A stretch of 64,000 nt of DNA from positions 509,359-573,358 of the forward strand of contig CBDDOJ010000001.1 of the NCBI GenBank assembly GCA_965231865.1, read 5' to 3'. Shown here piece after piece: positions 20,338 through 39,331 of the stretch; position 1 is the first letter of the stretch, and every line of letters starts with the position of its first letter. The notes beneath the pieces are model-generated. The model was given only the letters and a program-made list of their open reading frames with translations, was not told where the DNA came from and ran no database searches. The position numbers and the translations under genes are program-made. The stretch comes from Arenicellales bacterium. GTDB lineage: Bacteria; Pseudomonadota; Gammaproteobacteria; Arenicellales; Poriferihabitantaceae.

Positions 20338-20352
20338 CAGAATAATTCGGAT

Positions 20353-21549: not shown

Positions 21550-21565
21550 GATCAGGTATCAATAC

Positions 21566-22558: not shown

Positions 22559-22566
22559 GGGTAAAT

Positions 22567-23574
22567 TCAGGCTTCTGGAAAATCAATGTTTTCACCGGAG
22601 ATGATCCGATGGTGTAGGTTCATATCTATATTCCCGCCACTGGTGAGCACAGCCACCGGAGCATGACTCTTTATTTTACCGGAAAGCAGGGCTGCAATGC
22701 CCACGGAACCGGAACCCTCCAGAATCTGTCGTTCTGACCAATAGGCGTGGCGGATCGCTTCGGCAATCTCGCCCTCGGAAACCACAATCAACTCATCAAC
22801 CAGCTTTTGTACAATTGAAAACGTCAACCGGTTGTCCAGACCGATGCCTCCTCCCAGGGAATCCGCAATGGTCGGCAGTTCCTCAACTTCCACGGGGTGT
22901 CCGGATCGGATGCTCTCATACATAGCGGCTCCACGTTCCATGGAGACACCGATCACCCGGATCTCCGGTTGTGCGGCTTTCAGCGCAATGGCCATCCCGG
23001 AAATCAATCCTCCACCCGATACCGGAACCAGCACAGTCCGGAATTGCGAATTCTGCCCCAACAGTTCCAGTCCAAGAGTGCCCTGCCCCGTGATAATGTC
23101 AAAATGGTCAAACGGCGGGAGCACCGTCATGTGCTCCTCCCTGACCAGGCGGTCCACCTCCACCTGGGCCTCATCCTGGGAATCTCCCACGATGCGCACT
23201 TCGGCACCCTGCAATGCAATGCCGTCTATCTTGTTCTGCGGCACGAGGCTCGACATACAGATTATGCAGCGAATGCCTGCCTGACGTGCGGCATAGGCCA
23301 GCCCACGACCATGATTGCCCGTTGATACGCCAACAACCCCCCGGGCCCGTTGCTCCCTGGAGAGATTCAACACGGCATGGGTCGCACCGCGCAACTTGAA
23401 ACTCCCGGTAGTCTGGTGGTGTTCAAGCTTGAGAAATACCGGCACGCCGGATAACTCGCCAAGGGTCTGAGAGGGCACAACCGGAGTCGTCAGAACCCTG
23501 GGGGCAATCTGGCGCCTTGCCCGCCGGATGTCTACAATGGTCGGCCAGTCCGGCCTCAATGCTTTCTGGTTCAC
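22567..23574 (-). CDS. eutB: Threonine-dehydratase-like PLP enzyme (EutB-like)
   Basis: The PLP lysine context LEHHQTTGSFKLRGA and the glycine-rich loop GVSTGNHG are present. Confidence 0.75.
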   Translation of the reverse strand: MNQKALRPDWPTIVDIRRARRQIAPRVLTTPVVPSQTLGELSGVPVFLKLEHHQTTGSFKLRGATHAVLNLSREQRARGVVGVSTGNHGRGLAYAARQAGIRCIICMSSLVPQNKIDGIALQGAEVRIVGDSQDEAQVEVDRLVREEHMTVLPPFDHFDIITGQGTLGLELLGQNSQFRTVLVPVSGGGLISGMAIALKAAQPEIRVIGVSMERGAAMYESIRSGHPVEVEELPTIADSLGGGIGLDNRLTFSIVQKLVDELIVVSEGEIAEAIRHAYWSERQILEGSGSVGIAALLSGKIKSHAPVAVLTSGGNIDMNLHHRIISGENIDFPEA

Positions 23575-23583
23575 TGTGCTGGA

Positions 23584-24483
23584 TCAGGCTGAATGGCCGG
23601 GTTTTTCATCCTGTTGATGATCAAATATTGAGGTATATCCTTCCGACCAGTCCGGGGGAAGAGGAACCATCATTTCTTCATGGTGCGCAAATTCGGATTG
23701 CACACCGCGTACGAGACGGCCATAGTTTACACTGGGATAGGCAGGTGGAGTATACGGAATCGCGTCTGCGGCACTGTAGGTGACGACAAACGCCGGCCTC
23801 CCCAGTGCACTCATATTGCGGGCAGATCCATGGATGGTGCGGCTGTGGTGAACGGAAAGGGAACCCGGCGGACCCAGCATGGACACTGCCTTGTCCAGCG
23901 CAACCTCCCCCAGGTCCTGATCGGAAATGGCACCCGTCCAGTTTCCCCGGGTGTCGTAGTGCGAAAATATCGGCCCCTGATGGCTCTTTGGAATCACCTG
24001 CAGCGGGCCCTGCCCAGGCCCGGTGGCCTCCAGCATCAGCAGAAACTGCATCGTACCGGCATGGGTGTGGGGATAAAACACAATATCCTGATGCCATTTG
24101 ACTTCCGCTCCCCCACCGGCCCATTTGAAATTCATCATCAGTTCCCGGAACCTGACATTGGGACCCAGCAAGTCCGCTGCAATGTCGGGAATGATGGATT
24201 TCGAACACAGGTCCCAGAATACCGGGGCAAATTCATCCAGATAGGCAATCCGCCGCAACCGGGGATTTTCGGAACTGTGGTCCCGTTCAATGTCCACCTT
24301 CCGGGTGGACTGCCTGCAGTCCCTTGTCTGCTCGACAACCTCCGCCAGGGCACTTCGAAGCGGACCGAGCCATTCATCGCCAATCAGTCCGGGAAATGCG
24401 AGATATCCCTGCCGGTAATAGAATTTTCTTTGTTCCCGGGTCAAAATGGATGGCGGGCGGGACAGGATACTGTCGAGTTTCAT
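23584..24483 (-). CDS. Phytanoyl-CoA dioxygenase (PhyH) family Fe(II)/2-oxoglutarate oxygenase
   Basis: 299 aa. The facial-triad context is WHQD...(H) with a distal HHSRTIHGSARN. The ATG overlaps the eutA-like stop as ATGA (24480-24483). Confidence 0.72.
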   Translation of the reverse strand: MKLDSILSRPPSILTREQRKFYYRQGYLAFPGLIGDEWLGPLRSALAEVVEQTRDCRQSTRKVDIERDHSSENPRLRRIAYLDEFAPVFWDLCSKSIIPDIAADLLGPNVRFRELMMNFKWAGGGAEVKWHQDIVFYPHTHAGTMQFLLMLEATGPGQGPLQVIPKSHQGPIFSHYDTRGNWTGAISDQDLGEVALDKAVSMLGPPGSLSVHHSRTIHGSARNMSALGRPAFVVTYSAADAIPYTPPAYPSVNYGRLVRGVQSEFAHHEEMMVPLPPDWSEGYTSIFDHQQDEKPGHSA

Positions 24484-25328
24484 GGCAACCCCCTGGCCGA
24501 TACGCCATGATCGGGGATGGGGCCCGGCCTGCGCAGCAGTCGGCCAAATCCCTTGATGGACAATTCATGCCCTGCCCATCGCAACGCCTGCCAACACAAT
24601 GCCTGATTGGCCGTTACCACGGGTTTGCCGATTGCCTGTTCGATGGAATCCACGACCTCCACCGCCCGGATGGCAGTGCAGGATATGAACAGTGCATCCG
24701 CTTCGGGGCGATCCGCCTCGAGCGCCGCGTGATAAATGGCCCGGGGTGGAGTTCTCGCCATGGCATCGTTGTCGGCAAACTGAAAACTTGTGAAGGCGGC
24801 AATGCCCAGTCCGCTGTTTTTGATGTAATGGGAAATGGGGGCGTTGACTTCGTCGGTATACGGGGTCAGCACGGCGATATTCCCGGCGCCCAGCAGGCGC
24901 AATGCGGCCAGGGACGCGGTAATGGGGGTGGTCACAGGTATCCCCGGACGGGCACTGCGAATCCGCCCCGCAACGGCGTCGTACCCCAGTACAACCGTCC
25001 CCGAGGTGCAGCTGTAAGCCACCACGTCAAGCCGGGACCCTGGAATCAAAAGGGAAGCGGCGTGGGCCAGTTCCGGCTCCATGGCACGAAGATTGGCGAC
25101 CGAGCACCGCTGTGCATTCGGCACCCGGGAAACAAATACGGCAATCTCATCGCTTGTGCACATTTGATCGAAATCCCGTTCCGTTGCCAGATCATTGGAC
25201 AGGGCAATCAAACCGATTCGATAGCGTCCGGGGCCCTCGTCCAGTTCAACATCCGCCTGTACGGCCAGTGACTGGAATCCATCCGGTTCCCGGCTCTGAT
25301 CAATATTCATGTCCTGTTGTCTGCTCAA
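24480..25328 (-). CDS. eutA: Asp/Glu-racemase / arylmalonate decarboxylase-like protein (EutA-like)
   Basis: 282 aa. The pattern RIGLIALSNDLATERDF...VAYSCTSG...ISCTAIRA is typical of the maleate isomerase/EutA family. Confidence 0.7.
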   Translation of the reverse strand: MSRQQDMNIDQSREPDGFQSLAVQADVELDEGPGRYRIGLIALSNDLATERDFDQMCTSDEIAVFVSRVPNAQRCSVANLRAMEPELAHAASLLIPGSRLDVVAYSCTSGTVVLGYDAVAGRIRSARPGIPVTTPITASLAALRLLGAGNIAVLTPYTDEVNAPISHYIKNSGLGIAAFTSFQFADNDAMARTPPRAIYHAALEADRPEADALFISCTAIRAVEVVDSIEQAIGKPVVTANQALCWQALRWAGHELSIKGFGRLLRRPGPIPDHGVSARGLP

Positions 25329-25746
25329 TTCGTGGTTTGTGGACCGGAAACCAGGAGAACACCGTCAGCCGATGAAATGCAAATCCCCAGCATTCCCTGT
25401 TCTGCACCGTGTCATGGGGCAAACCAGGGTTCCCGCTGGCATCCATGACCCGATTCACAATCCCATCATCGAGTTTCGTCCCGCAGCGGGAAAGTTTTCG
25501 GGCCGGGTTGGCAAGTCATACACCGGATTGTCCTGATACAGCAATTCTCGAACCATCGTTATATAAGACTCTCTCGCGAATTACAATGAATCCGGGGGGA
25601 TGGTTTCCAGTCGTGCGCCAACCGGTACGGATACCCGGTTGCCCCAAAGACATGGTATGGTGAGAATACCCAAGACAATCCACCCTTTGGTGGAACCGAA
25701 ATGTTTACAATCCGATGACGGACAGGATCCTGAGAGAACGAGACCC

Positions 25747-26328
25747 ATGAACATCAAAACCAAGCGGGAAGCTGCGATTCGGACATGCGTCAACCAGACA
25801 CGTGACTTCCTGTCAGAAGGAGCCACCATAGACTCCCTGAACCGGGTAAAGGAAGCGTTGATGAATCTGTGCGCACAATCCCATTTATTCCCCCGGAGTG
25901 ATTTTCCCGTGCCGGACAAAAGACAGAAAGAACGATGTTTCCTCATTCATGAAGACGATAACGGGGACTTCGCGCTGTACGTCAATTCCGCGCTGCCCAC
26001 CCAGACCTATCGGCCCCATAACCACGGAGGCTCCTGGGCGGTCATCGCCGCGGTTGAAGGAGAAGAAAAACACGGGCTGTATCAGGAAGTCACCCCGGAT
26101 ACCGTAAAACTGGTCAATGAAATGGTGGTTAAACCGGGAACCGCGGTATCCATGCTGGAAGATGGCATTCATTCCATTTGCGCCCAGGGGGACCAGCCGC
26201 TGTTGCATCTTCATTTTTATGGGAAATCCTTTGCCAGGCAGGGAGAAAGGACGGAATACGATCTTGAACTCGGCATTGCTGAACACCTGATCATGGGTGA
26301 GCTGGACTACATTGAAGATGCCCGGTAA
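25747..26328 (+). CDS. Cupin-fold protein (cysteine-dioxygenase-like)
   Basis: I moved the start to ATG 25747 (MNIKTKREAAIR...). The cupin metal motif is RPHNHGGSWAVIAAVEGEE...H. It is divergent from the eut operon. Confidence 0.55.
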   Translation: MNIKTKREAAIRTCVNQTRDFLSEGATIDSLNRVKEALMNLCAQSHLFPRSDFPVPDKRQKERCFLIHEDDNGDFALYVNSALPTQTYRPHNHGGSWAVIAAVEGEEKHGLYQEVTPDTVKLVNEMVVKPGTAVSMLEDGIHSICAQGDQPLLHLHFYGKSFARQGERTEYDLELGIAEHLIMGELDYIEDAR

Positions 26329-26400: not shown

Positions 26401-28974
26401 ATGGCAAGAAAACAAAAAAAGTCCGTGGAACAGTATGCGCACACGGAGAAGAAGCGGATCAATAACCCACCGGTGGGTCTGGTCACACCACAAACCGACC
26501 CTGATCACGGCACCAGAAAGGAATACGAGTACGACCCGCATCTTGACCCGAAACTGCAGTGGACCGGCAAGGCCGAACAGTCATGTTTTAATGTGCCGAC
26601 CGTAAGTCTGCATGTCCATGAGCGTATTGATCCGAAAACCATCCTTGAAGCCGTCAGGAAAGTGCTTGGAGACCGCCGTCAGGAAAGCCTTTTTGACAAT
26701 CACAAGCCCCTTCGTGAAGCCGTTGAGTTCTACAAACACAAGGATAACTGGAGCAATCGGTTCATTGCCGGTGACAGCTTGCTGGTAATGAACTCTCTAC
26801 TGGAAAAGGAAGCCATGGCCGGCAAAGTGCAAATGGTTTACTTTGATCCGCCTTATGGCATCAAGTATGGCAGCAATTTCCAACCATTCGTCAATCAGAA
26901 CCAGGTCAAGGACGGTAAGGATGAAGACCTGTCTGGTGAACCGGAGATGATCAAGGCTTTTCGGGATACCTGGGAACTGGGAATTCACTCCTACCTGTCC
27001 CACCTGCGTGACCGCCTGCTCCTGGTTCGGGAGCTACTGGATGAAAGCGGCAGTGTATTGGTGCAGATAGGCGATGAGAATGTACATCGTGTGAGCATGA
27101 TACTGGATGAGGTTTTCGGAGCAGGGAATCGACTGGCAACCATAAGCTTTGCGACCACCAGTGGAAGTTCCACGGCATATCTGCCCCAAGTCGCGGATTA
27201 CCTGCTCTGGTATGTGAAAGATACTAATAAAGCTAAGTATCGGCAGCTGTACGAACCCCTCACCCGTACCGAAACTATCGATTACTTTAGTTCATATGTC
27301 ATGGTTGAGCTTGCCGATGGCAGTTGTCGCAAATTAACCGGTGAAGAACGGTTTGACCCGGACCGGTATCTGCCGGAAGGTGCACGAATTTATCAACGTA
27401 CCGGGTTGGATTCTCAAGGGGTTTCTACGACTGGCCGCTCTGAACCTTACGAATATGACGGCAGAACCTTTCGTTGCTCGAAAAACCGGCACTGGTCCAT
27501 TTCAAAAGAAGGGATGGACCGACTGGCTGAACAGGGACGGCTTGAAGCCTTGAGCGGGCAAAGCTCATTGAGGTGGAAAAAATACGAAGATGAAGTGCCT
27601 GGTCGACGCATTCATAATATCTGGCCAGCACAGATGTACCCCAGCAAGAAGAAGTACGTGGTTGAAACCGCGACCAAGGCGATACAACGGTGTATCCTCA
27701 TGACCACTGATCCGGGAGACCTGGTCCTCGATATTACCTGCGGCAGTGGCGCCACCGCTTTTGTGGCCGAGCAATGGGGACGACGCTGGATAACCTGCGA
27801 TACCTCCCGCGTGGCGCTGGCGCTGGCCCGGCAACGGTTAATGACCGCCAGTTTTGAGTATTACCAATTGGCACACCCGGATGAGGGGATCGGCAGTGGC
27901 CTGAAATACAAAACCGTATCCAAAGTATCGCCCAGTATTTTAGCCGGTGATCAACAGGACGCAGAGGTCCTGTATGACCAGCCTTTCGTGGAAAAGGGCA
28001 AGGCACGCATTACCGGCCCTTTTACGGTGGAAGCGGTCCCCGCCCCCTATGTAAAAAGCATGGATGAGATGGACAACCAAGCAGAGCAGGAGAACGCAGC
28101 CGATTTGACCATCGCCCGGACAGGTGAAACCGTGCGCCAAAGCGACCTGCGCGATGAACTGCTACACTGTGGCGTACGTGCCAAAAACGGCCAGCAAATC
28201 ATGTTCAGCCGGGTCGAGGTTCTGTCCGGAACAAGATACCTGCAGGCAGAAGCCGAAACCCGACCGGCCAGCCCTGACAGCAACCCTGTCAGGGAAATCC
28301 CGGTCACGGCGAATACGCCTCTGCGGACCGTGATTTCCTTTGGCCCGGAACACGCACCGCTGGAACCCCGCCAGGTTGAGCTGGCACTGGACGAAGCCGG
28401 AAGACTGCGTCCCAAACCCCAGATCATACTGTTCGCCGCCTTTCAGTTTGACCCGGAAGCGGCCAAGGATATTGATGAAACCAACTGGCCCGGGGTTACC
28501 CTGCTCAAGGTGCAAATGAACGCCGACCTGCAGACCGGCGACCTGAAAAGGAAACGTGCCAGCAACGAAAGTTTCTGGTTGGTGGGTCAGCCTGATGTGA
28601 ATCTGTATCCAATCCATCGGGGTGAAGCCACCGGGAAATGGCAGGTCGAGGTCAGGGGATTCGACTACTTTAACACCAGGACCGGTAAAGTCGAATCCGG
28701 TGGTGAAAATGAAATCGCAGTGTGGATGCTTGATACCGACTACGATGGACGTAGCCTGTACCCAAAGCAGGTGTTTTTTCCAATGGCCGGTCCGAAAGAT
28801 GGCTGGGACACCCTGGCCCGCAACCTCAAAGCAGAAATCGATGAAGAGATGATTGAGGCCTATCGGGGGAACCTGTCCCTGCCCTTTGAACTGGGTGACA
28901 ATAAACGCATCGCCGTTAAAATCGTAGATAACCGGGGCATTGAAAGTTTACGAGTGGTCGATCGATATAAATAA
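26401..28974 (+). CDS. mod: Type III-like DNA methyltransferase (beta-class N6-A/N4-C MTase, 857 aa, long C-terminal extension)
   Basis: Motif IV (VYFDPPYGIKYGSNF, aa ~150) comes before motif I (LVLDITCGSGATAFVAEQWGRRWITCDTS, aa ~440). That order defines the beta class used by Type III Mod proteins. Confidence 0.85.
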   Translation: MARKQKKSVEQYAHTEKKRINNPPVGLVTPQTDPDHGTRKEYEYDPHLDPKLQWTGKAEQSCFNVPTVSLHVHERIDPKTILEAVRKVLGDRRQESLFDNHKPLREAVEFYKHKDNWSNRFIAGDSLLVMNSLLEKEAMAGKVQMVYFDPPYGIKYGSNFQPFVNQNQVKDGKDEDLSGEPEMIKAFRDTWELGIHSYLSHLRDRLLLVRELLDESGSVLVQIGDENVHRVSMILDEVFGAGNRLATISFATTSGSSTAYLPQVADYLLWYVKDTNKAKYRQLYEPLTRTETIDYFSSYVMVELADGSCRKLTGEERFDPDRYLPEGARIYQRTGLDSQGVSTTGRSEPYEYDGRTFRCSKNRHWSISKEGMDRLAEQGRLEALSGQSSLRWKKYEDEVPGRRIHNIWPAQMYPSKKKYVVETATKAIQRCILMTTDPGDLVLDITCGSGATAFVAEQWGRRWITCDTSRVALALARQRLMTASFEYYQLAHPDEGIGSGLKYKTVSKVSPSILAGDQQDAEVLYDQPFVEKGKARITGPFTVEAVPAPYVKSMDEMDNQAEQENAADLTIARTGETVRQSDLRDELLHCGVRAKNGQQIMFSRVEVLSGTRYLQAEAETRPASPDSNPVREIPVTANTPLRTVISFGPEHAPLEPRQVELALDEAGRLRPKPQIILFAAFQFDPEAAKDIDETNWPGVTLLKVQMNADLQTGDLKRKRASNESFWLVGQPDVNLYPIHRGEATGKWQVEVRGFDYFNTRTGKVESGGENEIAVWMLDTDYDGRSLYPKQVFFPMAGPKDGWDTLARNLKAEIDEEMIEAYRGNLSLPFELGDNKRIAVKIVDNRGIESLRVVDRYK

Positions 28975-28987
28975 ACGGGGGAAGACT

Positions 28988-30244
28988 GTGATCAAGCAAC
29001 TGCAACTTCGCAATTTCAGAATTTTTGATGAGGAGGTGACCATCCGGTTTCGTCCAATCACCTTGTTGATTGGGAAAAACAATGCCGGAAAGTCCTCAAT
29101 CATCCAGTTCTTGTTGATGTTGCAGCAGTCGATTGGGTTAAACAGCAAGGCATTTCTGGACTCAAGAGGCGAGAAAGTCGATCTGGGTACATTTTACGGG
29201 CTGAAAAACAGTAATTCCCTCAAACGTTTCCTGGATTTTTCTTTGCATGTGCAGGAGAACAGCAGTCCAAGGAGTCAACTGGGAGCCTATCTGCAAGAAA
29301 AGGGTATCAAATTTTATGAGCACCCTCTCGAATACCAGATCGCCGCCAAGATCTTATACAACAAGCAGAACCTTTTCCAAGGCAAAGATTGGAAGCTCAC
29401 ATTGTTGTCCAACCATCAAACCATTTTGCAACGTCCCACCCCGATTACTGAAAACAGCCAGTTCCTGCAGACTAGTGGAGAATATTCAGTGGAATCTTCA
29501 GACTCAAATCCTGAAGAAATCAGGGAAAACCAGGCAGAACAATGCTGCCTGGAGTCAATCGCGCAGACAATCAGAACAATGGAACATATTGGACCGAACA
29601 GAAGGATGATGCCAAGAACCATCGATACCGGTGAAAACATACCCTCTCATCATGTCGGGAGAAGCGGAGAATATGCACTGCATCACTTATGGAAACTGTC
29701 GAAAAACCACCACGGTCGGTCTGAATTGATTTACCCTCATTTGAAAAAAATTGTGGATATCCAGAATATTACTTTTTCAGAGAAGGGAGATTTAGCCCAA
29801 TGCGAGGCACAGAATGTGAAAACACGGGCACGTACCAATATTGCGAATTTTGGCTTCGGTACCAGTGAGAGCCTGCCAATTATAGTACAAGGCGCAATGA
29901 TGGCCCCCAGAACTACTCTCCTGGTAGAACAGCCGGAAGCCCAGATTCATCCCTCAGCCCAGCTGGAACTGGGCAGTTTCTTTGTTGATTTATGGAAACA
30001 GCGCAAGGTCCATTCCATCATAGAAACACACAGTGCCAATATCCTGTTGAGGTTGCAAAGATCCATTGCAAGAGGGGATTTGAATGCGGATGACGTGTCT
30101 GTCGTGTTTTTTGATGTCGAGAATGAAAAATCGGTCGTGAACAATTTGGAAATCAATGAAGATGGTTCCATAGAAGACGGATTACCCATGGAATTTTTTC
30201 ATCAGGATATCTGGGAAGCCATGGACCTGGAGGTTGGAGAGTGA
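28988..30244 (+). CDS. ABC/AAA-type ATPase with DUF3696-like C-terminus
   Basis: I prefer the GTG start at 28988 after a GGGGGA RBS, 13 nt past the mod stop. Walker A is LLIGKNNAGKSS, Walker B/D-loop is LLVEQPEAQIHP and the H-loop is ETHS. The C-terminal tail ...DVSVVFFDVENEKSVVNNLEINEDGSIEDGLPMEFF resembles DUF3696. Confidence 0.8.
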   Translation: MIKQLQLRNFRIFDEEVTIRFRPITLLIGKNNAGKSSIIQFLLMLQQSIGLNSKAFLDSRGEKVDLGTFYGLKNSNSLKRFLDFSLHVQENSSPRSQLGAYLQEKGIKFYEHPLEYQIAAKILYNKQNLFQGKDWKLTLLSNHQTILQRPTPITENSQFLQTSGEYSVESSDSNPEEIRENQAEQCCLESIAQTIRTMEHIGPNRRMMPRTIDTGENIPSHHVGRSGEYALHHLWKLSKNHHGRSELIYPHLKKIVDIQNITFSEKGDLAQCEAQNVKTRARTNIANFGFGTSESLPIIVQGAMMAPRTTLLVEQPEAQIHPSAQLELGSFFVDLWKQRKVHSIIETHSANILLRLQRSIARGDLNADDVSVVFFDVENEKSVVNNLEINEDGSIEDGLPMEFFHQDIWEAMDLEVGE

Positions 30245-30774
30245 ATGGGCTGACATGTGACTACATTGCGATTGATACAAATGTTTTTCTCCATCTGACC
30301 AATGAAAAATTTAATTCGGATAGACATATACACAAACTATTACAGGTGCCGAAAGAAGGAGAGAACAAGATACATCTTCTGGTCGATACCAACGGGGAAA
30401 TTTTTTCTGAATACGGTCGCCATTTGTTGAAAGAAGAGTTTCTTCAATCCCGACAACGCAAAAATGAAGCCCAGATCATAAAGTATTGGTTGAGATTTGC
30501 GCCCAGAAAACCGATTTCAGTCCATAAAACCGACCAACTGTGGTCTGCAATTTTCAGTATTATCCCGGAGGCCAAGGAAGAGGTTGACAGAATATTTGTT
30601 TATGTGGCCTTCCAAACAGGACGCATATTGATCAGCAATGATCGCAAACACATTGTAAGCCGTCGAGGCCAACTGAAATCATGCTACAGGAATGGTTTCT
30701 GTAGCAACGGTGCAGATGTGATGGATTCCCAAGAGGCCTACAACCGAATCCAGAACACCGGGACTTCCAATTAA
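30241..30774 (+). CDS. PIN-like domain protein (putative nuclease), 177 aa
   Basis: GTG start overlaps the ATPase stop as GTGA (30241-30244). Acidic positions follow PIN-like spacing: IAIDTNVF (N-terminus), EEVDRIFVYVA and LISNDRKHI. The assignment rests on motif spacing only. Confidence 0.45.
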   Translation: MNGLTCDYIAIDTNVFLHLTNEKFNSDRHIHKLLQVPKEGENKIHLLVDTNGEIFSEYGRHLLKEEFLQSRQRKNEAQIIKYWLRFAPRKPISVHKTDQLWSAIFSIIPEAKEEVDRIFVYVAFQTGRILISNDRKHIVSRRGQLKSCYRNGFCSNGADVMDSQEAYNRIQNTGTSN

Positions 30775-30862
30775 GGACCATGTCGAAAAGGCAAAATAAT
30801 GCTAGCATACCGGGGTCTCAAAAAATGCGGAGTACATTCTGCAACATAGGGGGTAAGCCAAT

Positions 30863-31609
30863 ATGGGAACAGTGAAGATTACGCTGAATTATCGGTCAAC
30901 GAACACAGAAAGCGGCCTGATCAGCGCGGACTTTCTCTACCACCAGGCAGGACTGGATCCAGAAAGCAGTCAATGGCTCTATCTGAACAGGGACCACGAT
31001 GTCGACATCCCGCTCCTGCCGAATGACCACCTCATCATCCGTGGTGGAGAGATCATCTTTGCAGATGAGGCCAGCTTTGATATTGGCGAAAACCCCAGGA
31101 TCAAAAACCCCATTTGTTTTCAGTTCAATGACAAGCGGATGGAAGCGGATAAAGCCAAGTTGACTGGCCATAAACTTCGAAAACTGGATACGAAACTTGA
31201 TGCCAGCAAGCTGTTTGCCGATTTGAGCGGGCAGGCAGATGCCTTGGTCCAGGATGACTGGGTATTGGTGGTGCAGGAAAAGGACTGCTATTTTACCATT
31301 CCCGCAGGGAATGACGAAACAATTGACATTGAAGAATGCGCGCGAGCAGACCGAAGACCACCCAAAGGCCAAAAGTGGTACAAGATCAAAATCGATGGTG
31401 ACAAGTATAAGGTGGACCAGTCATCATTGACTGGTCAAGAGATACTTGGGCTAGTGCAAAAAAATTATCAGGAATGGACGTTGAATCAAAAATTGTATGG
31501 CGGCCGACGCAAACCGATTGAGGAAGAACAGACGGTAGATTTTTCACAACCGGGCATTGAGCGATTTGAGACAGTACAAAAACAAGCTCAACAGGGCACT
31601 TGCTTGTAA
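30863..31609 (+). CDS. Multi-ubiquitin (tandem beta-grasp/Ubl) protein, 248 aa
   Basis: An AGGGGG RBS lies 10 nt upstream. Three internally similar ~70-80-aa segments are visible, for example ...KLTGHKLRKLD... and ...SLTGQEILGLV... with ...ISADFLYHQAGLDP... The last segment (KWYKIKIDGDKYKVDQSSLTGQEILGLV) fits the Multiubiquitin family pattern. The C-terminus is ...QQG-TCL. Confidence 0.7.
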   Translation: MGTVKITLNYRSTNTESGLISADFLYHQAGLDPESSQWLYLNRDHDVDIPLLPNDHLIIRGGEIIFADEASFDIGENPRIKNPICFQFNDKRMEADKAKLTGHKLRKLDTKLDASKLFADLSGQADALVQDDWVLVVQEKDCYFTIPAGNDETIDIEECARADRRPPKGQKWYKIKIDGDKYKVDQSSLTGQEILGLVQKNYQEWTLNQKLYGGRRKPIEEEQTVDFSQPGIERFETVQKQAQQGTCL

Positions 31610-31986
31610 TGATTCTTCCTGATGAAGATACGGATTTTCTCAATGCTCAGTATAATTCCCGATGGGAAGAATTGTCGGAGGGAAATACCCACGGCCTGTT
31701 GATCAGGGACTACCCACTGCCTGAAGGGTATACCCCGAAGAATTCCAGTTTAATGTTGCTGATTCCAGACAGCTATCCGGGTGCAATGATTGACATGTTC
31801 TATTTTGACCCGCCGGTCCAGAGGGAGGACGGGGCCGAAATTGAAAGATTATTAGATGAAATTCACTTTGGCCGACAATGGCAAAGATGGTCGAGGCATT
31901 ATGACTGGCGACCCGGAATCGACAACATGTCAACACACATCACCTATGTATCCAATCAACTCAGGTCTGAGATCAATAACGGATAG
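31609..31986 (+). CDS. Prokaryotic E2/UBC-like protein (family-E-like), cysteine-free, 125 aa
   Basis: The ATG at 31609 overlaps the Ubl stop (TAATG). The pattern LPEGY...LMLLIPDSYPGAMIDMFYFDPPV...WQRWSRH fits the prokaryotic E2 family found next to multi-ubiquitin and JAB-E1 genes (from memory). No Cys is present. Confidence 0.65.
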   Translation: MILPDEDTDFLNAQYNSRWEELSEGNTHGLLIRDYPLPEGYTPKNSSLMLLIPDSYPGAMIDMFYFDPPVQREDGAEIERLLDEIHFGRQWQRWSRHYDWRPGIDNMSTHITYVSNQLRSEINNG

Positions 31987-31995
31987 TCCCATTCT

Positions 31996-33396
31996 GTGAA
32001 TCACTCACTGGTACTTTCAGAAAGTCAGCATCAGAGACTCTCTGAACATCTTCATCCCGGGGATGGCCTTGAATCCGCTGCCATTATTCTCTGCCATCAT
32101 GGTCGGGGGGGAGAAGGTCAACTGCGGTTAATCGCCAATGATTTCATCCTGATTCCCGCGGATGCCTGTGAGAAGAGGACAGCCACCAGATTGATCTGGC
32201 CTTTTGCTGATTACCTTCCGCCAGACAAAATCACCGAAATCGACCAGAACGGCTTGTCTGTCATGACCATTCACAGTCATCCAGGTGGCATGGACCGATT
32301 TTCACGGGTCGACAATTCAAACGACAAGTCCCTGTTTCATTCAGTATGCAACTGGTTTGATGACGACAGGCCAAATGGGTCAGCAATCATACTGCCAGAC
32401 GGGAAAATCGTCGCCCGTCTGGTGACAGTGGATGGCCGGTTTATCCCTATACACAGTGTAACGGCAGTGGGCGAAAATATCCGAATCTGGAAACAGTCAA
32501 GGAAAAGCCCGGCTTCGTTGCCTGCGGGATTGCGCGTTGCCCAGACCTTTGGCAAGGGAACTTTCGATCTGCTGCGCAATTTGCGCGTGGGGGTGGTCGG
32601 TTGTTCGGGCACCGGGAGCATTGTCAGTGAACTGCTCGCACGCAACTGCATTGGCACACTGATTCTGGCAGACCCGGATTACGTTGAAGAAAAAAACCTC
32701 AACCGTATACTCAATGCCACGAAAACCGATGCTAAAAACAAGACTCCCAAAGCATCAATGCTTAAACGGGCGATTGCAAAAATGGGCACAGGCGTACAGG
32801 TTGAAGCGTATCAGACACATACCTCCGACAAGGCTCTTATCGAAGTGCTGATAAGTTGCGATGTGATATTCGGGTGTGTTGACTCAGCCGAAGGCAGATA
32901 CCATATTGAATGTATTGCCTCAGCCTACTGGTTGCCGTATTTTGATGTTGGCGTCAATCTTGAAGCCAACTTGGAAGGAAGGATTTTGCAGGCCGATGCT
33001 GTTGCCCACTATATGCACCCGGAAACCACCAGTCTGATGTCTCGTGGCGGCTACACCAGCAATCAGGTTACCGCTGAAACCTGGTATCGCACCGACAGAA
33101 AATACTATGAAACACAAAGAGACGCCGGGTATCTGGCAGCAGTGGGAGAGGACCAGCCAGCCGTTATGTCAGTGAATATGCAGGCAGCGTGCATGGCCTT
33201 TAATGATTTTCTGGCTCGGCTGCATGGATTTCGTCTTGATTGCAATGATGATTTTACGACACAGCGTTTCAGACTGGTACATGGGCATTACAGCCATGCT
33301 GCATCAGAAGAGCAGGCACCCTCTGTTTTTGATCCGTACAGTGGTATGGGAGACCACAGTTTTTTGATTCGAAAGCTAAAACATGATGTTGACTGA
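31996..33396 (+). CDS. JAB/JAMM metalloprotease fused to a ThiF/MoeB-type E1 adenylyltransferase (466 aa)
   Basis: GTG start. The JAMM motif is intact: E (GLESAAI) and HSHPGGMDRFSRVD, which equals H-x-H-x7-S-x2-D. The E1 Rossmann loop is VGVVGCSGTGSIVSELLARNCIGTLILADPDYVEEKNLNRI. Confidence 0.85.
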   Translation: MNHSLVLSESQHQRLSEHLHPGDGLESAAIILCHHGRGGEGQLRLIANDFILIPADACEKRTATRLIWPFADYLPPDKITEIDQNGLSVMTIHSHPGGMDRFSRVDNSNDKSLFHSVCNWFDDDRPNGSAIILPDGKIVARLVTVDGRFIPIHSVTAVGENIRIWKQSRKSPASLPAGLRVAQTFGKGTFDLLRNLRVGVVGCSGTGSIVSELLARNCIGTLILADPDYVEEKNLNRILNATKTDAKNKTPKASMLKRAIAKMGTGVQVEAYQTHTSDKALIEVLISCDVIFGCVDSAEGRYHIECIASAYWLPYFDVGVNLEANLEGRILQADAVAHYMHPETTSLMSRGGYTSNQVTAETWYRTDRKYYETQRDAGYLAAVGEDQPAVMSVNMQAACMAFNDFLARLHGFRLDCNDDFTTQRFRLVHGHYSHAASEEQAPSVFDPYSGMGDHSFLIRKLKHDVD

Positions 33397-33748
33397 ACTG
33401 GTCAACTTTCGGGAAAGATGGCGAAAATATCGAACTCGCTGGGTCGCTGATTTGCCGGAAAAGCCTGAACGGAACACCGCTTATGTGATTGGCGGGCGCA
33501 AGTACCCGTACTATGCTGCAATCACCTGCCCACGAAAAAAGTGCAGAATTATTGTTCACCTTGAAGTTTCTGCGGAGTTCAAAAAAAGATGGAAGCTGAT
33601 TGAACACGATGATGGAAGCATTTCACTGTCACCGTCCATACGTGTTACCAAAGCTCCGTGTCGCTGCCACTATTTTCTCAAGAAAGGAAAAATAACCTGG
33701 GCAGAACCCCCTGTGTTCTTTGTTCCAGCGGAAAACCGTCGATCCTGA
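33383..33748 (+). CDS. DUF6527-like small Cys-rich protein (121 aa)
   Basis: The start overlaps the E1 3' end by 14 nt. Cys pairs are CPRKKC and PCRCH. The C-terminal pattern SLSPSI...C.CHYFLKKGKITW recalls DUF6527. Confidence 0.58.
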   Translation: MMLTELVNFRERWRKYRTRWVADLPEKPERNTAYVIGGRKYPYYAAITCPRKKCRIIVHLEVSAEFKKRWKLIEHDDGSISLSPSIRVTKAPCRCHYFLKKGKITWAEPPVFFVPAENRRS

Positions 33749-33779
33749 CAGCAACCGACTTGTCCTGTTCCGATATACA

Positions 33780-36620
33780 ATGAATCAAACTATCCCCAAA
33801 CTCATTATCAATAGCCCTTATACAGAACCGGAAAAACATTGGTTGTACGATCGGGAAACCCGTGAGTTTCGAATAAAAAACACTCGCCGGCCGGCCGGTT
33901 ATATTCAGGCAACACCCGATTCCCGTGCGTTTGATGACCCTGGCATACCGATTGAAATAGAACTTGTCAATAAAATACGGTCCAGAGTAAAGGCATGGAG
34001 GCAGTCCGGCTATATCGGCGTTACCGGTACCACAAGACGGTTGCTGGAACACTGGCATGACGAACAGGAACGACGGGACAACCGATTTTTCTTTTGCCAG
34101 ATAGAAGCGATAGAAACACTGATCTGGTTGACCGAAGCCCCCGCGGCCGATAGAACGGGAATTACGATTGAGGGCGATGGCGGCCAGTTTGAACGTTGGT
34201 GCAGCAAAATGGCCACCGGCTCAGGCAAGACGGTTATCATGGCCATGCTGATTGCCTGGAATTTCTTGAATAAAATCACCAACTCTGCAGACCCTCGCTT
34301 TAGCAGGAATACGCTGGTGGTAGCGCCAGGCCTAACGGTAAGAAGCCGTCTGCAGGTTTTGTTGCCCGCACATCCTGAAAACTATTATGAAGCGTTCAAT
34401 ATCGTACCAACATCCCTCATGGACAAGTTACGTCAGGGCAAGGTGTTGGTCCGGAACTGGCATGAACTGGCATGGGACACACAGGAAAAACTGGATGCGA
34501 AGGTAAAACGGGGATACTTGCGCTCGGTAGACAAGCGAAAACGTACCGAAATCAGTGCTGAGGTGTATGCCCAACAAGTACTGGGGGAAATGGCAAATGC
34601 TCGCAATATCCTCGTGATCAACGATGAAGCACATCATGCCTGGCGAATCAATCCGCAAGCCACCAACAAGTATACACGGACGGGTTCAACCAAAGACAGC
34701 GCCGAAGAAGCCACCGTATGGGTCGGTGGCCTGGATAGAATTCATGCACAAAGAGGTATTCTGCACTGCTACGATCTTTCTGCCACTCCATTCTCGCCGT
34801 CAGGAAAAAAATCAGCAGAAGAAACTTTATTCAACTGGATTGTGTCTGACTTTGGGCTGAATGACGCCATTGAATCAGGCTTGGTGAAAACGCCCCGGGT
34901 AGTAGTTCGGGATGACAGTCATGTTCAAAGCAAAGAACTGAAATCCAGGCTTTATCATATTTATGCTGATGAAGAGGTCAGGGATGATATTAACCGCAAA
35001 GCGAAAGAAACGGACCCACTCCCTGACCTGTTGCTGAACGCCTATTACCTTCTGGGTCAGGATTGGAAACAGACTCGAAATAAATGGCTTGAGCAAGGAC
35101 ACCCTGTGCCGCCCGTGATGATCACGGTTGCCAACAGAATTGAAACCTCGGCGCGTATCAAGCATGCGTTTGATCACAAGAAAATACTTATCTCCGAGTT
35201 GTGTGATCCAGACAAAACCCTGCAAATCGACAGTAAAGTGCTCCATGAAGCCGAATCTGAAACCGAACCAATGTATATTGGTAGCACCAGCGGTGACGGT
35301 CGCGTGAAAGCCAAGCCCAAGTTGACTAAAAAAGAACAAGCTGAACAGTTGCGTCAAATGGTGGATACAGTGGGACGGGTCGGCGAACTGGGCGAACAGA
35401 TTCACAACATCATTTCTGTAGGCATGCTTTCCGAAGGATGGGATGCCAGGACAGTGACCCATATCATGGGAATCAGAGCATTTTCCAGTCAGTTGTTGTG
35501 TGAACAGGTGGTTGGACGAGGCCTGCGAAGGATCAGTTATGACATGAATGATGAAGGGTTATTTGAACCTGAATACGTCAATATATTCGGCGTTCCCTTT
35601 ACATTTTTACCCCATGAAGGCAATGGGTCGGTACCCGCACCGCCCTTGCCGAAAACCAGAATTGAGCCGGTAAGAGCAAAACTGGCCCACGAAATCGTCT
35701 GGCCCAATATCCTTCGTATTGATCATCAATACCAGTCACGACTTACTCTGGACTGGGATAAAGTCCAGCCACTGGAAATTGACCCTCTCGACTACATTAC
35801 CCAGGCACAGTTGACTGCCATCGTTGATGGCAAACCGAACGACAAAGTGTACGCAGGGATTACCCTGAAGGAAAATACCAGACTGCAAACAGTGGTGTTT
35901 CATGTCGCATCCACGATTTACAACCACGAAAAACCACAGTGGAAAGGCAACAAAGAGTCCTTTCTTATCCAGATTGTCAGGCTGACTGAACAGTTCCTCA
36001 ACTCAGAAAAAATTGTTACCAAGAATGGTTTTCCGCATCCCAATGAAGCTAAAAGAAGGATACTGCTCATCCTCAACATGAATAAAATCATTCAGCACAT
36101 CTGGTCAGCGATACGATCGAAAAACACCGAGAAACTGGTCCCTGTGTTTGACAAAGAAAAACCAATCAAATCAACTTCGGATATGAGGCCCTGGTTTACC
36201 AGCAAACCCTGCGAGAAGCTTGAAAAATCTCATATCAGCCATTGCGTGTATGACAGCGGTTGGGAAGGAACGGAAGCCAACTTCATGGAAAAATCCAAGT
36301 TGGTTGCGTCTTTTGCCAAGAACGACCATTTGGGATTTTCTGTTTTGTATAATTACAATGGCGTTGTTCGAAAATACTACCCGGATTTTCTGATAAGACT
36401 GGCCAATGGCGACTACATGGTACTTGAAGTCAAGGGTCAGGATAATCAGAAGAATCAGACTAAGCGAGAATACTTAAATAAATGGATAAAAGCTGTAAAT
36501 GGACAGGGAGGCTTTGGTCAATGGCATTTTATCGTTTCATTTCATCCATCAGACCTGGAAAGCAAAATACGGAACTGCATGGCACATTCATCGGCACCTG
36601 TCGTAAATGGTGCAGATTAA
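33780..36620 (+). CDS. res: Type III-like restriction subunit: SF2 DEAH helicase with C-terminal PD-(D/E)xK nuclease
   Basis: I prefer the start at ATG 33780 (MNQTIPKLIINSPY...). Walker A is MATGSGKT and motif II is NDEAHHAW. The C-terminal nuclease motif is YYPDFLIRLANGDYMVLEVKGQ. Confidence 0.85.
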   Translation: MNQTIPKLIINSPYTEPEKHWLYDRETREFRIKNTRRPAGYIQATPDSRAFDDPGIPIEIELVNKIRSRVKAWRQSGYIGVTGTTRRLLEHWHDEQERRDNRFFFCQIEAIETLIWLTEAPAADRTGITIEGDGGQFERWCSKMATGSGKTVIMAMLIAWNFLNKITNSADPRFSRNTLVVAPGLTVRSRLQVLLPAHPENYYEAFNIVPTSLMDKLRQGKVLVRNWHELAWDTQEKLDAKVKRGYLRSVDKRKRTEISAEVYAQQVLGEMANARNILVINDEAHHAWRINPQATNKYTRTGSTKDSAEEATVWVGGLDRIHAQRGILHCYDLSATPFSPSGKKSAEETLFNWIVSDFGLNDAIESGLVKTPRVVVRDDSHVQSKELKSRLYHIYADEEVRDDINRKAKETDPLPDLLLNAYYLLGQDWKQTRNKWLEQGHPVPPVMITVANRIETSARIKHAFDHKKILISELCDPDKTLQIDSKVLHEAESETEPMYIGSTSGDGRVKAKPKLTKKEQAEQLRQMVDTVGRVGELGEQIHNIISVGMLSEGWDARTVTHIMGIRAFSSQLLCEQVVGRGLRRISYDMNDEGLFEPEYVNIFGVPFTFLPHEGNGSVPAPPLPKTRIEPVRAKLAHEIVWPNILRIDHQYQSRLTLDWDKVQPLEIDPLDYITQAQLTAIVDGKPNDKVYAGITLKENTRLQTVVFHVASTIYNHEKPQWKGNKESFLIQIVRLTEQFLNSEKIVTKNGFPHPNEAKRRILLILNMNKIIQHIWSAIRSKNTEKLVPVFDKEKPIKSTSDMRPWFTSKPCEKLEKSHISHCVYDSGWEGTEANFMEKSKLVASFAKNDHLGFSVLYNYNGVVRKYYPDFLIRLANGDYMVLEVKGQDNQKNQTKREYLNKWIKAVNGQGGFGQWHFIVSFHPSDLESKIRNCMAHSSAPVVNGAD

Positions 36621-36970: not shown

Positions 36971-39331
36971 GTGGATTTCACTACTGACCCTCTTCTGCCT
37001 CTCAAAACAGCCCCGCCGAAGATTGCCCTGGAAGAAATCAGGTCGGTTCTGGCGCAGCAGTATTCCCTGGATGGCGAACTGAAACCCCTCGGGGGAGAAT
37101 GTGATCAAAACCTGCTCCTTGAGAACGAGGCATCCCGGTACCTGGTAAAAATCGTCAATGCTTCCGTGCCCGATGGGTTGCTGGATCTGCAAACCCGGGC
37201 TTTGCTCCACATTGCGAATGGATACCGGGTCCCTCCCGTACAGAAACTCATTGCAGCCACCGATGGAAGGAGCTGGGTTTCCGGTAAGGACCAATGCGAA
37301 GAAAAATATCGCCTCAGGGTCTTTGATTATCTGGATGGTGTGGCGTTCTTTGAAACACCGGAAGACCCCCGGCTAATGAGGAATCTTGGCCGGTCGCTGG
37401 CCAGGCTTGATCTGTCGTTGAGAGGCTTCTTTCATTCTTCAGCAAAGTATATTTTTGCCTGGGATGTTCAAGGCGTGGACCAGATCTCCGGGCTGGCCGC
37501 ATACGTGGACGATGACAGATCAAGGGTGGCCATTGAACACTTTCTTGAGCATTTTACCGCCCGCATCAAGCCCGTGCTGCCCCGTTGCCGTGCCCAGATT
37601 ATTCACAACGATGTTTCATTTCATAACGTCCTGACGGACCCCGAAAATTCTGTCCGGATTGCCGGAATTTTTGATTTTGGGGACATGATTTTCGCACCGC
37701 TGATTCAGGAACTGGGGATCACTGCGGCCGAAGTGCCCGGAAGATGCACAGACCCATTGTCCCGGTGTGCTGAAATTGTTTCCGGCTATCATTCAATCGT
37801 TCCACTGGAGGACCTGGAATTCGAACTGTTACCCGCGATGATGACTGCCCGACTGGTGCAGAATCTGCTGATCAGCCATTGGTCGAGGAAGGAACTCCCG
37901 TGGAGCGACCGCCGATCCCATCTGGACGGTTGGGATGAAAAGGCACTGGCCATGTTCCGGCTGATGCAATCGACTGACCCCAGGGAACTGGTTTCCCGAC
38001 TCAAGGCCGCCTGCGGTTGCCCTGAAGGGGGTATCCAGGAGGCTGGCTTACCCGAATCTACCCGGTCCCTACTCGCCCGACGAGAGAAGTACCTGGGAAA
38101 CGGACGGTATATCGCGTATAAAAAGCCCCTCAATCTTGTCAGGGGAGAAGGGGTCTGGCTGCATGATCACAACGGAATGGCATATCTGGATGCCTACAAC
38201 AATGTCCCCCATGTCGGCCATTGCCATCCCAGGGTGGTGGCCGCAGTAGCAAAACAAACCGCCGCACTCAATGTCAATACACGCTATCTCTACGGCACAT
38301 TGACGGATTACGCGGAACAGATTGCGCAGACCCTTCCCCCGGGGCTGGATACCTGCTATTTCGTCTCATCCGGCAGTGAGGCCAATGATCTGGCATGGCG
38401 CCTGGCCAAGAACTGGACCGGCAACGATGGCGGGCTGGTATTGTCGAACGCCTACCATGGCATCACAGATGCCGTATACGATTTGTCTCCGGCGGAAAAA
38501 TACAATCCTGATGACATCAAATCCCACATCGCCGAACTGGACGCACCGGATGATTTCAGGGGTCCGTGGAAACGGGACAACCCGGAACGGGGCATTCTGT
38601 ACGCACGGTCCTGTGAAGCCGCGATCGCCCGACTGGCTGCCCGGGGACACCGGCCCGCTGCTTTTTTCATGGATATGATCATGAGCAGCAACGGGATCAT
38701 GCTGCCGCCTGCCGGGTACCTGGAAGAGGTATACAGGCTGGTCCGCGCAGCGGGGGGATTGTGTGTTGCCGATGAGGTTCAGTCCGGCTTCGGTCGGTTG
38801 GGCAAATCAATGTGGGGGTTTGAACTGGCTGACATTACACCGGATATCGTGACCTTTGGGAAATCCATTGCCGGCGGCTATCCCATGGGCCTGGTCGTAA
38901 CCCGACGGGAAATTTCCGAAAAGCTGGAGAAAACCTGTCAGTTTTTCAGCACGACCGGGGGCAACCCCGTTGCCTGTGCCGCCGCCAGTGCGGTCCTGAA
39001 CATCGTTATCGATGATAACCTGGTGCAGCATGCTGACCAGACGGGTCGCATGCTGATGCGCGGTATCCGGGATCTGGCCGAACAATCCCCCATCATCGGG
39101 GACGTTCGAGGCGGGGGCCTGTTCATTGGGGTGGATATCATCAAGGACCCGGTGACCCTGGAACCGGACCCGGCACAGGCGAGCGACCTTGTCAACGCCC
39201 TTCGTGACCGTGGTGTGCTGGTCGGGCTGGATGGAGTGAAACACAATGTATTGAAGGTTCGCCCTCCAATGGTGTTTCGTGCACAACATGTTCAACTGTT
39301 CCTAGACAGGCTGCAAAGCGCTTTACACTGA
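36971..39331 (+). CDS. Fusion protein: aminoglycoside-phosphotransferase-fold kinase (N) + class III PLP aminotransferase/phospho-lyase-like domain (C), 786 aa
   Basis: GTG start. Kinase motifs are IIHNDVSFHNVL and GIFDFGD. The aminotransferase domain begins at aa ~390 and has a PLP-lysine context VTFGKSIAGGYPMG. Confidence 0.8.
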   Translation: MDFTTDPLLPLKTAPPKIALEEIRSVLAQQYSLDGELKPLGGECDQNLLLENEASRYLVKIVNASVPDGLLDLQTRALLHIANGYRVPPVQKLIAATDGRSWVSGKDQCEEKYRLRVFDYLDGVAFFETPEDPRLMRNLGRSLARLDLSLRGFFHSSAKYIFAWDVQGVDQISGLAAYVDDDRSRVAIEHFLEHFTARIKPVLPRCRAQIIHNDVSFHNVLTDPENSVRIAGIFDFGDMIFAPLIQELGITAAEVPGRCTDPLSRCAEIVSGYHSIVPLEDLEFELLPAMMTARLVQNLLISHWSRKELPWSDRRSHLDGWDEKALAMFRLMQSTDPRELVSRLKAACGCPEGGIQEAGLPESTRSLLARREKYLGNGRYIAYKKPLNLVRGEGVWLHDHNGMAYLDAYNNVPHVGHCHPRVVAAVAKQTAALNVNTRYLYGTLTDYAEQIAQTLPPGLDTCYFVSSGSEANDLAWRLAKNWTGNDGGLVLSNAYHGITDAVYDLSPAEKYNPDDIKSHIAELDAPDDFRGPWKRDNPERGILYARSCEAAIARLAARGHRPAAFFMDMIMSSNGIMLPPAGYLEEVYRLVRAAGGLCVADEVQSGFGRLGKSMWGFELADITPDIVTFGKSIAGGYPMGLVVTRREISEKLEKTCQFFSTTGGNPVACAAASAVLNIVIDDNLVQHADQTGRMLMRGIRDLAEQSPIIGDVRGGGLFIGVDIIKDPVTLEPDPAQASDLVNALRDRGVLVGLDGVKHNVLKVRPPMVFRAQHVQLFLDRLQSALH

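Follow-up and report, generated by a model that had tools for sequence, protein, structure and literature searches.

A predicted Type III-like restriction–modification operon that recurrently carries an ATPase–PIN pair and a Bub ubiquitin-like cassette

Introduction

A 10-kb locus in the genome of an Arenicellales bacterium (GenBank assembly GCA_965231865.1, contig CBDDOJ010000001.1, positions 509,359 to 573,358; this whole stretch of 64,000 nucleotides is referred to here as the window, and coordinates given without a locus name are positions within it) carries a putative ATPase–PIN nuclease pair and a four-gene ubiquitin-like (Bub) conjugation cassette between the mod and res genes of a predicted Type III-like restriction–modification (R–M) pair. 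This mod–ATPase–PIN–Bub–res package is a conserved composite and no one-off, because the same eight genes are found in at least nine other lineages. We regard it as probable that the locus is a co-inherited, layered composite for defence that was built by embedding genes in an autonomous R–M pair.

Each of the modules, as well as the principle of embedding, is already known. The embedding of defence genes has been documented in Hma, BREX, DISARM and Type I R–M systems under the term ‘guilt by embedding’ (Payne, Hughes, Fineran & Jackson, 10.1101/2024.01.29.577857). The chemistry of Type I Bub operons was described by the Corbett laboratory (bioRxiv 10.1101/2024.11.21.623953 and 10.1101/2024.11.21.623966), and the biochemistry of oxyester-based Bub conjugation has been published for systems from Citrobacter and Escherichia coli only. 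In the literature that was searched, no paper was found on the BPTD_3080 family of restriction enzymes, to which the present res belongs, or on the composite, in agreement with a preliminary description of the locus that knew of no system of this composition. Four things were not found described there: the BPTD_3080 family as an embedding hotspot, the mod–ATPase–PIN–Bub–res package, an ATPase–PIN subfamily restricted to R–M operons and a Bub cassette inside an R–M operon.

Bub operons (6E/DUF6527) have an unusual and well described oxyester chemistry, with no demonstrated biological role as of 2026. The conservation of one Bub clade inside an R–M operon, beside an ATPase–nuclease pair resembling that of the Menshen system, provides independent ‘guilt-by-embedding’ support for an immune role of Bub, and the locus is a compact, regulator-free natural construct of 10 kb in which that role can be approached. 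In addition, the phenomenon of embedding is extended to a large and highly conserved Type III-like R–M family, the mod–res junctions become a source of further candidate defence genes, and the locus supplies a candidate for a guard of the PrrC kind in a Type III system. If Bub were integrated with restriction, this would be the first biological role for Bub operons and would amount to the control of restriction by a ubiquitin-like protein.

Organization and recurrence of the locus

The locus consists of eight tightly packed open reading frames (ORFs), all on the + strand, at 26401–36620. The preliminary description, which had been made from the nucleotide letters, counted nine genes here, one too many, and the seven junctions that it listed are all correct. 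The first gene, mod (26401–28974), encodes a Type III-like β-class N6/N4 DNA methyltransferase of 857 amino acids (aa) with a C-terminal extension of ∼350 aa without a known fold. After a gap of 13 nucleotides (nt), a gene with a GTG start (28988–30244) encodes an NsnB-like ABC ATPase of 418 aa, a putative sensor or regulator subunit, and a GTGA overlap at 30241–30244 joins it to the PIN-like gene (30241–30774), the 177-aa product of which is the putative nuclease effector paired with the ATPase. A strandless spacer of 88 nt (30775–30862), with a GGGGG ribosome-binding-like site ahead of the bubA ATG, leads to the Bub cassette, which comprises bubA (30863–31609; a ubiquitin-like protein of 248 aa), bubB (31609–31986; a cysteine-less E2 of 125 aa, Prok-E2_E), bubCD (31996–33396; 466 aa, a JAB peptidase fused to an E1 adenylation domain) and bubE (33383–33748; a DUF6527 serine protease of 121 aa). 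Within the cassette, bubA and bubB share a TAATG overlap, bubB and bubCD are separated by 9 nt, and bubCD and bubE overlap by 14 nt. A gap of 31 nt separates bubE from res (33780–36620), which encodes a superfamily 2 (SF2) DEAH helicase of 946 aa with a C-terminal PD-(D/E)xK nuclease. With six same-strand genes between mod and res, the locus is an embedded defence system sensu Payne et al. The anatomy of three modules proposed earlier is supported by domain matches, and the individual domain calls (a β-class Mod with DPPY before the S-adenosylmethionine motif, a DEAH Res with PD-(D/E)xK, the ATPase/PIN pair and the Bub cassette) hold by Pfam, PADLOC and NCBIfam matches, by motifs and by a fold model of the PIN protein.

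At least nine further lineages have the same order of eight genes, at different chromosomal sites and with different flanks; their BubCD proteins are 63–97% identical to that of the window. The closest copy, L091 (BubCD 97% identical), lies at the same chromosomal site as the window and shares its downstream flank. The order is also identical in L092 (78%), L093/L094 (77%), L096 (67%), L081–L083 (66%), L098 (64%, from Pseudohongiellaceae) and L073 (63%, a sponge-associated metagenome-assembled genome); L095 (73%) shares this order but carries an additional ∼5 kb of cargo ahead of res. In L097 (8848–18806; BubCD 61%) the genes are cyclically permuted to BubA–BubB–BubCD–res–mod–ATPase–PIN, and BubE is absent. 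Furthermore, contigs of 50,257 bp, 24,958 bp, 10,716 bp, 131,192 bp, 5,860 bp and 1.93 Mb appear with the same sizes across the lists of Res, BubCD and PIN matches, which suggests additional copies. The comparison of gene neighbourhoods that had been proposed earlier thus finds that the inner genes are not confined to this locus.

All copies of the package have tight junctions, and joint expression of the eight genes is probable. The 88-nt gap had been suggested to hold an internal promoter. A scan for consensus promoters and terminators gave counts no higher than those in shuffled sequence and no + strand match in the gap, a result that neither supports nor excludes a promoter there. However, the distance between the PIN-like gene and bubA is 0–22 nt, or the two overlap, in L092, L093, L095, L096, L098 and L073; as the length of the spacer varies among the copies, an internal promoter in it is not a conserved feature.

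Cargo at mod–res junctions

The Res family was scanned with one genome per species, which gave 80 loci, out of more than 527 Res loci, with both mod and res present in 69. In all 69 of these species-representative loci mod precedes res on the same strand. The preliminary description took mod and res to be normally adjacent; in the BPTD_3080 family this does not hold, since the gap is below 150 bp in 23 of the 69 loci, whereas in 42 (61%) it measures at least 546 bp (0.5–5.4 kb) and contains one or more ORFs of at least 100 aa, mostly on the same strand. The cargo includes HepT/HEPN proteins with a small partner (seven loci), a 270-aa TIR protein of the CAP12/Pycsar type (six loci), an M78 peptidase with a helix–turn–helix (HTH) domain together with DUF4411 (three loci) and AAA_21 with DUF4276 (three loci). 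Small PIN proteins, AAA_15/AAA_21 ATPases with partners, Schlafen AlbA_2, an AAA+ ATPase with an S8 peptidase, Fic and Uma2 proteins were also found, and many of the ORFs at these junctions (L001–L080) belong to no family. On plasmids, mod and res are adjacent in Rhizobium etli pRsp8C3b (L103), and an ATPase with a partner is embedded in a Planktothrix plasmid. The mod–res junction of the BPTD_3080 family is therefore a general landing site for defence and toxin cargo, and the earlier suggestion that cassettes had been inserted into a mod–res spacer is supported by comparative genomics. No recombination motif shared at the cargo boundaries was found in the 60 nt upstream of res in ∼85 loci.

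These junctions resemble the embedded systems of Payne et al. in that the nested genes share the orientation of their host operon and often encode an ABC ATPase and a nuclease, and the frequency of 61% found here is close to the 62.7% that they give for Hma systems. However, the Type III-like family analysed here is not among the systems of that study, and no Bub or other ubiquitin-like cargo was met in its text; furthermore, one specific cargo of two modules is conserved as a lineage in the present case.

The restriction–modification pair

The product of mod matches PF01555 (2.7e-28) and the PADLOC model MTase_III (2.4e-153), and its DPPY motif (aa 149–152) precedes GSGAT (448–452), which is the order of a β-class enzyme (motif IV before motif I). 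Residues 501–857 (27901–28974) have no match in Pfam, although they are conserved within the family. The C-terminus of Mod, ‘...VKIVDNRGIESLRV...’ (VKIVD-RGIESLK), is the family end that directly abuts res in non-embedded loci. Res matches the NCBIfam equivalog NF046055, ‘BPTD_3080 family restriction endonuclease’, with 1104 bits (cutoff 800), as well as PF04851; its match to the PADLOC model REase_III is weak (7.9e-8). Its GSGKT (147–151) and DEAH (282–285) motifs and the nuclease residues D869, E883 and K885 are invariant in 11 homologues. Members of the very large Res family are highly conserved, at ∼70% identity across phyla.

By these matches and motifs, mod and res are a BPTD_3080-family Type III-like R–M pair. 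As in the classical Type III systems EcoP15I and EcoP1I, mod comes before res, Mod is of the β-class, and Res has an SF2 DEAH helicase in its N-terminal part and a PD-(D/E)xK nuclease at the C-terminus. In contrast to EcoP15I and EcoP1I, Mod is larger (857 aa) and has an uncharacterized C-terminal region, and the family is curated separately as BPTD_3080. Membership of Hma was considered and dropped, as the 25 best PADLOC matches for Mod included no Hma model and Res matched REase_III only.

The ATPase and its PIN partner

The ATPase matches AAA_15 (6.6e-24) and, over nearly its full length, the PADLOC model NsnB (2.4e-53), followed by PDC-M55A (7e-48); the match to HEC-03B (9.4e-39) is partial and falls into two stretches. 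A weak match of its C-terminus to Pfam DUF3696 (E = 0.0028, 18.3 bits) lies below the cutoff of 22. The Walker A motif is GKNNAGKS (29–36), GFG replaces SGG, and the Walker B motif is altered to VEQPE (313–317). Inserts in the middle of the protein are hypervariable between homologues.

The partner protein reaches only a sub-threshold match to Pfam PIN (E = 1.3e-3). However, D12, E57, D116 and D134 are invariant in an alignment of 27 homologues, so that the D-E-D-D acidic set is kept, and an AlphaFold2 model (mean predicted local distance difference test score 84.8) has VapC/PIN structures as its top Foldseek matches in the PDB, with probabilities of 0.99–1.0 and template-modelling scores of up to ∼0.6. 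A profile of the PIN family had no meaningful match among PDB sequences, the protein had no match among plasmids, and none of the PADLOC models matched it at E values up to 0.01. The family is small, with 250 clusters among 1.84 billion representatives, all of which are single-domain proteins of similar size. The partner is thus a putative PIN nuclease that is catalytically intact as judged by its residues, and it is predicted to act as an RNase.

Menshen (NsnA–NsnB–NsnC) has been reported to associate with Type III R–M systems (PMC12065111). The present pair shares with it an NsnB-type ABC ATPase (GxG in place of SGG, an altered Walker B motif and a weak, sub-threshold DUF3696 match) that is followed by a small PIN-fold partner. 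However, NsnA (ParB/DUF262) is absent, none of the eight proteins having a DUF262 domain; moreover, NsnC combines an inactive PIN-like N-domain with a C-terminal effector, whereas the partner here consists of the PIN domain only and keeps D-E-D-D. With NsnA missing and the effector domain lacking from an otherwise intact PIN partner, the locus is not a Menshen system. Among the candidates that pair an ABC ATPase with a PIN protein (HEC-03 and PDC-M55), the ATPase matches the HEC-03B model and the PIN partner matches none, so that the pair is not HEC-03 either; for HEC-03 itself, phage defence has been demonstrated experimentally (10.1101/2024.01.29.577857).

The subfamily of this ATPase–PIN pair was seen only directly downstream of a BPTD_3080-family mod, with or without Bub (∼15 loci); pairs without Bub stand directly after mod in L030, L033, L101, L102 and L104. 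Outside this R–M frame, the closest plasmid relatives of the ATPase are only ∼25% identical and are annotated as DUF3696 proteins. A coupling of the pair to the R–M enzymes is plausible by analogy with PrrC in the EcoprrI Type Ic hsd locus, which is likewise a nucleotide-binding regulator coupled to an RNase and is found essentially only embedded in one kind of R–M operon. PrrC differs in that one polypeptide carries the anticodon-nuclease domain and the host system is of Type I, whereas two proteins and a PIN domain occur here in a Type III-like system. Because the pair is positioned exclusively after mod, a PrrC-like guarding of the R–M complex is plausible, and the analogy drawn in the preliminary description retains its value as a working model.

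The distant DUF3696 relatives of the ATPase lie on two plasmids, pAcX50e and a pAsa9-like plasmid (L105 6001–8619 and L106 6001–8629), where the gene for the ABC ATPase is followed by those for a hypothetical protein of 177 aa and a member of the RNA ligase family. These three genes form a module outside any R–M frame.

The ubiquitin-like cassette

The four Bub domain matches all lie above the Pfam cutoffs, and all published Bub catalytic residues are kept. BubA matches Multi_ubiq (PF14452, 2.4e-12) at aa 173–239 and ends in QAQQG245-TCL; among its relatives the ERFET...QAQQG motif runs into BubB where the two proteins are fused and into a tail of 0–7 aa where they are split, and QQG245 is kept in 15 sequences. 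BubB matches PF14462 (3e-32), with a conserved WSRH (94–97) as the S-x-H motif equivalent to S333/H335 of the Citrobacter protein. In BubCD, which matches Prok-JAB (2.5e-7) and ThiF (1.9e-26), the JAMM residues E26, H93-x-H95, S103 and D106, the adenylation residue R237 and the crossover-loop Y371 are invariant in the alignment, and there is no Cys at 348–378. BubE (PF20137, 7.1e-15) has conserved CPRKKC (49–54), CRCH (93–96) and SLSPS (81–85) motifs, that is, C49, C54, C93, C95, H96 and a Ser cluster.

By its predicted proteins, the cassette is a Type I Bub (6E.1/DUF6527) operon except that bubA and bubB are separate ORFs, whereas BubAB is fused in L084, L099 and L100. The features in common with Type I Bub are a Multi_ubiq ubiquitin-like protein with a C-terminal Gly, a Cys-less S-x-H E2, a JAB–E1 with a crossover-loop Tyr and a DUF6527 Ser/His protease with Cys4. 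The published operons differ from the present one, in which bubA and bubB are split with a TAATG overlap, BubA has a tail of 3 aa, and the cassette sits inside an R–M operon behind an ATPase–PIN pair. Furthermore, the regulators CapW, CapH + CapP and CapK + CapS, which are found beside many Bub operons, do not accompany this Bub clade.

More distant Bub operons (L099 and L100; BubCD 56–59%) are canonical, with fused BubAB, and lie outside this R–M frame. One distant operon adjoins a Type II R–M system, and L100 is preceded by a divergent HTH + M78 pair and followed by Type I hsd genes. A metagenome scan with BubCD gave 10 loci, and a scan of viral contigs with the same protein gave no match.

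The length of BubA varies within the composite clade between ∼95–99, 167 and 248 aa (L082 9323–9610, L096 9320–9619, L098 9134–9637 and window 30863–31609). The number of N-terminal β-grasp units therefore changes, and the C-terminal ERFET...QAQQG unit is kept.

Turnover of cargo and retention of the package

The nearest relatives of the Mod proteins of composite loci are the Mod proteins of other composite loci. The relationships of Res mostly agree with those of Mod, with two exceptions. The Res proteins of L001 and L075, loci with other cargo, are among the nearest neighbours of composite Res proteins, and the Res of L097 is from a different lineage than its Mod. Different cargo is found in R–M backbones as close as those of L001 (72% for Res) and L075 (69%), and composites with more distant Res (60–65%) keep the package. 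Cargo thus turns over between close R–M relatives and the package persists over deeper splits, a pattern that speaks for the combination being under selection but not for the modules being obligately interdependent. A trace of such turnover is present in L095, where a remnant of the res N-terminus (13150–13455; aa 3–104, 64% identical) lies between the Bub cassette and Schlafen AlbA_2/S8 peptidase cargo, ahead of an intact res. This remnant points to an exchange of cargo by recombination, with the conserved R–M genes as homology arms.

The modules differ in their rates of change. Across the composite loci, the ATPase and the PIN protein are 34–53% identical, compared with 60–80% for Mod, Res and BubCD. 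In the comparison with L091 (window 28988–31986 and L091 2759–5756), a single pair with short genes, the ratio of nonsynonymous to synonymous substitution rates (dN/dS) is 0.47 for the ATPase, 0.60 for the PIN protein and 0.79 for BubB, and 0.10–0.22 for the other genes. The elevated values suggest fast-evolving sensor, effector and specificity parts. In the same comparison, dS over the genes mod to bubB exceeds dS over the stretch that begins with bubCD and ends with the flanking aminotransferase gene by a factor of two to three, and this step at bubB/bubCD suggests that the left half of the locus is a mosaic.

Discussion

A layered composite for defence, co-inherited and built on an autonomous R–M pair, accounts best for these observations in our judgement. 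In such a locus, all eight genes would probably be expressed and would move together. Mod would methylate host DNA, and the Mod–Res complex would cut unmodified DNA of an invader. The ATPase would hold or activate the PIN nuclease, and the pair would serve as a second line that degrades RNA on sensing a phage product or a failure of restriction, which resembles the sensor–effector pairs of Menshen (NsnB–NsnC), HEC-03, Septu and PARIS. Control of the partner by the ATPase has been predicted for NsnB–NsnC, and the same has been shown for Septu and PARIS (PMC12065111). In the Bub cassette, BubA would be trimmed after Gly245 by the JAB domain of BubCD or by BubE; BubCD would then adenylate BubA and carry it on Tyr371, and BubB would take it on the Ser-x-His site and transfer it to target lysines, with BubE and the JAB domain undoing the modification. 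The modification of phage or host proteins by Bub may form a third layer.

Several points weigh against this reading. No phage protection by Bub operons had been shown as of mid-2026 (PMC13373217), and Bub is therefore a putative third layer of defence by context only. The sampling is limited, with 80 of more than 527 Res loci covered and ∼15 contexts of the ATPase–PIN subfamily seen against 250 family clusters, and the dN/dS figures come from one pair of loci. The package is not inviolable, as L097 lacks BubE and has a Res of another lineage. Furthermore, the embedded genes are locked in place by a co-selected gene on either side, and their long retention could partly be hitch-hiking.

This last point leads to the strongest of the competing explanations, which we nevertheless consider unlikely, namely that two unrelated cassettes came to rest in a permissive spacer, from which their loss would need recombination inside a selected R–M operon, and that no functional or regulatory link exists among the modules and their combination is not selected for. 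Such a ‘genomic sink’, together with an option of selfish linkage, is discussed by Payne et al. (10.1101/2024.01.29.577857), and it fits the great diversity of the junction cargo, the res remnant of L095, which marks a recombinational exchange of cargo on the R–M genes, and the mosaicism to which the higher dS from mod to bubB points. However, cargo turns over fast among close R–M relatives, yet the package persists over deeper splits and in different hosts; the inner genes all have intact catalytic residues, and most have low dN/dS. Moreover, the permuted L097 keeps the modules even though mod and res do not enclose them any more.

At the other extreme, the eight genes could form one integrated system with obligate cross-talk, which appears somewhat less likely again. 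BubA might be attached to one of the proteins of the locus itself (Res, Mod, the ATPase or the PIN protein), or Bub might respond to R–M activity, so as to arm or restrain the response; in a variant, BubA would be put on phage anti-restriction proteins to switch the response. The models for this are Cap2/Cap3, which prime the CD-NTase in Type II cyclic-oligonucleotide-based antiphage signalling systems, and EcoprrI, which restrains PrrC. The retention of the gene set over 61–97% BubCD identity and through a cyclic permutation is in keeping with integration, as are the tight junctions in every copy, the confinement of the ATPase–PIN subfamily to the position after mod and the absence of the Cap regulators from this Bub clade (the distant L100, in contrast, has its HTH + M78 pair). 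Against this, the modules also occur alone, as adjacent mod–res pairs, as mod–ATPase–PIN–res operons without Bub and as fused-BubAB operons outside an R–M frame. The close R–M backbones of L001 and L075 have other cargo, L095 tolerates a further ∼5 kb of cargo after Bub and ahead of res, and L097 lacks BubE. A composite of separable layers, as favoured here, is compatible with modules that also stand alone.

Finally, it is very improbable that the inner genes serve a stress response or R–M addiction rather than immunity, with a PIN toxin and Bub modification acting in responses to DNA damage or in post-segregational responses: PIN proteins are classic toxins of toxin–antitoxin (TA) systems, TA-like pairs (HepT, PIN and M78 + DUF4411) are among the junction cargo and the authors of the Bub work allow for a general role in stress responses, but the ATPase is of the defence-associated NsnB/HEC-03/PDC-M55 type, the context is an R–M operon and the neighbouring cargo families are mainly known defence domains.

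Chromosomal setting

An ORF of 242 aa (25600–26328, + strand) lies directly 5′ of mod, at the GC transition. It was excluded from the unit because it belongs to no Pfam or NCBIfam family and has no counterpart at the other composite loci. A repeat search across the island found no flanking direct repeats or att-like sites. The GC content is 0.43–0.50 over 29–37 kb, compared with 0.54–0.59 in the flanks, which encode ectoine-utilization enzymes and an aminotransferase; with its low GC content and metabolic flanks, the locus forms an island within housekeeping genes. The island splits the genes for ectoine/hydroxyectoine utilization (doeA, doeB and eutA–C; 19324–25328, − strand) from a gene for an APH–aminotransferase fusion (36971–39331, + strand).

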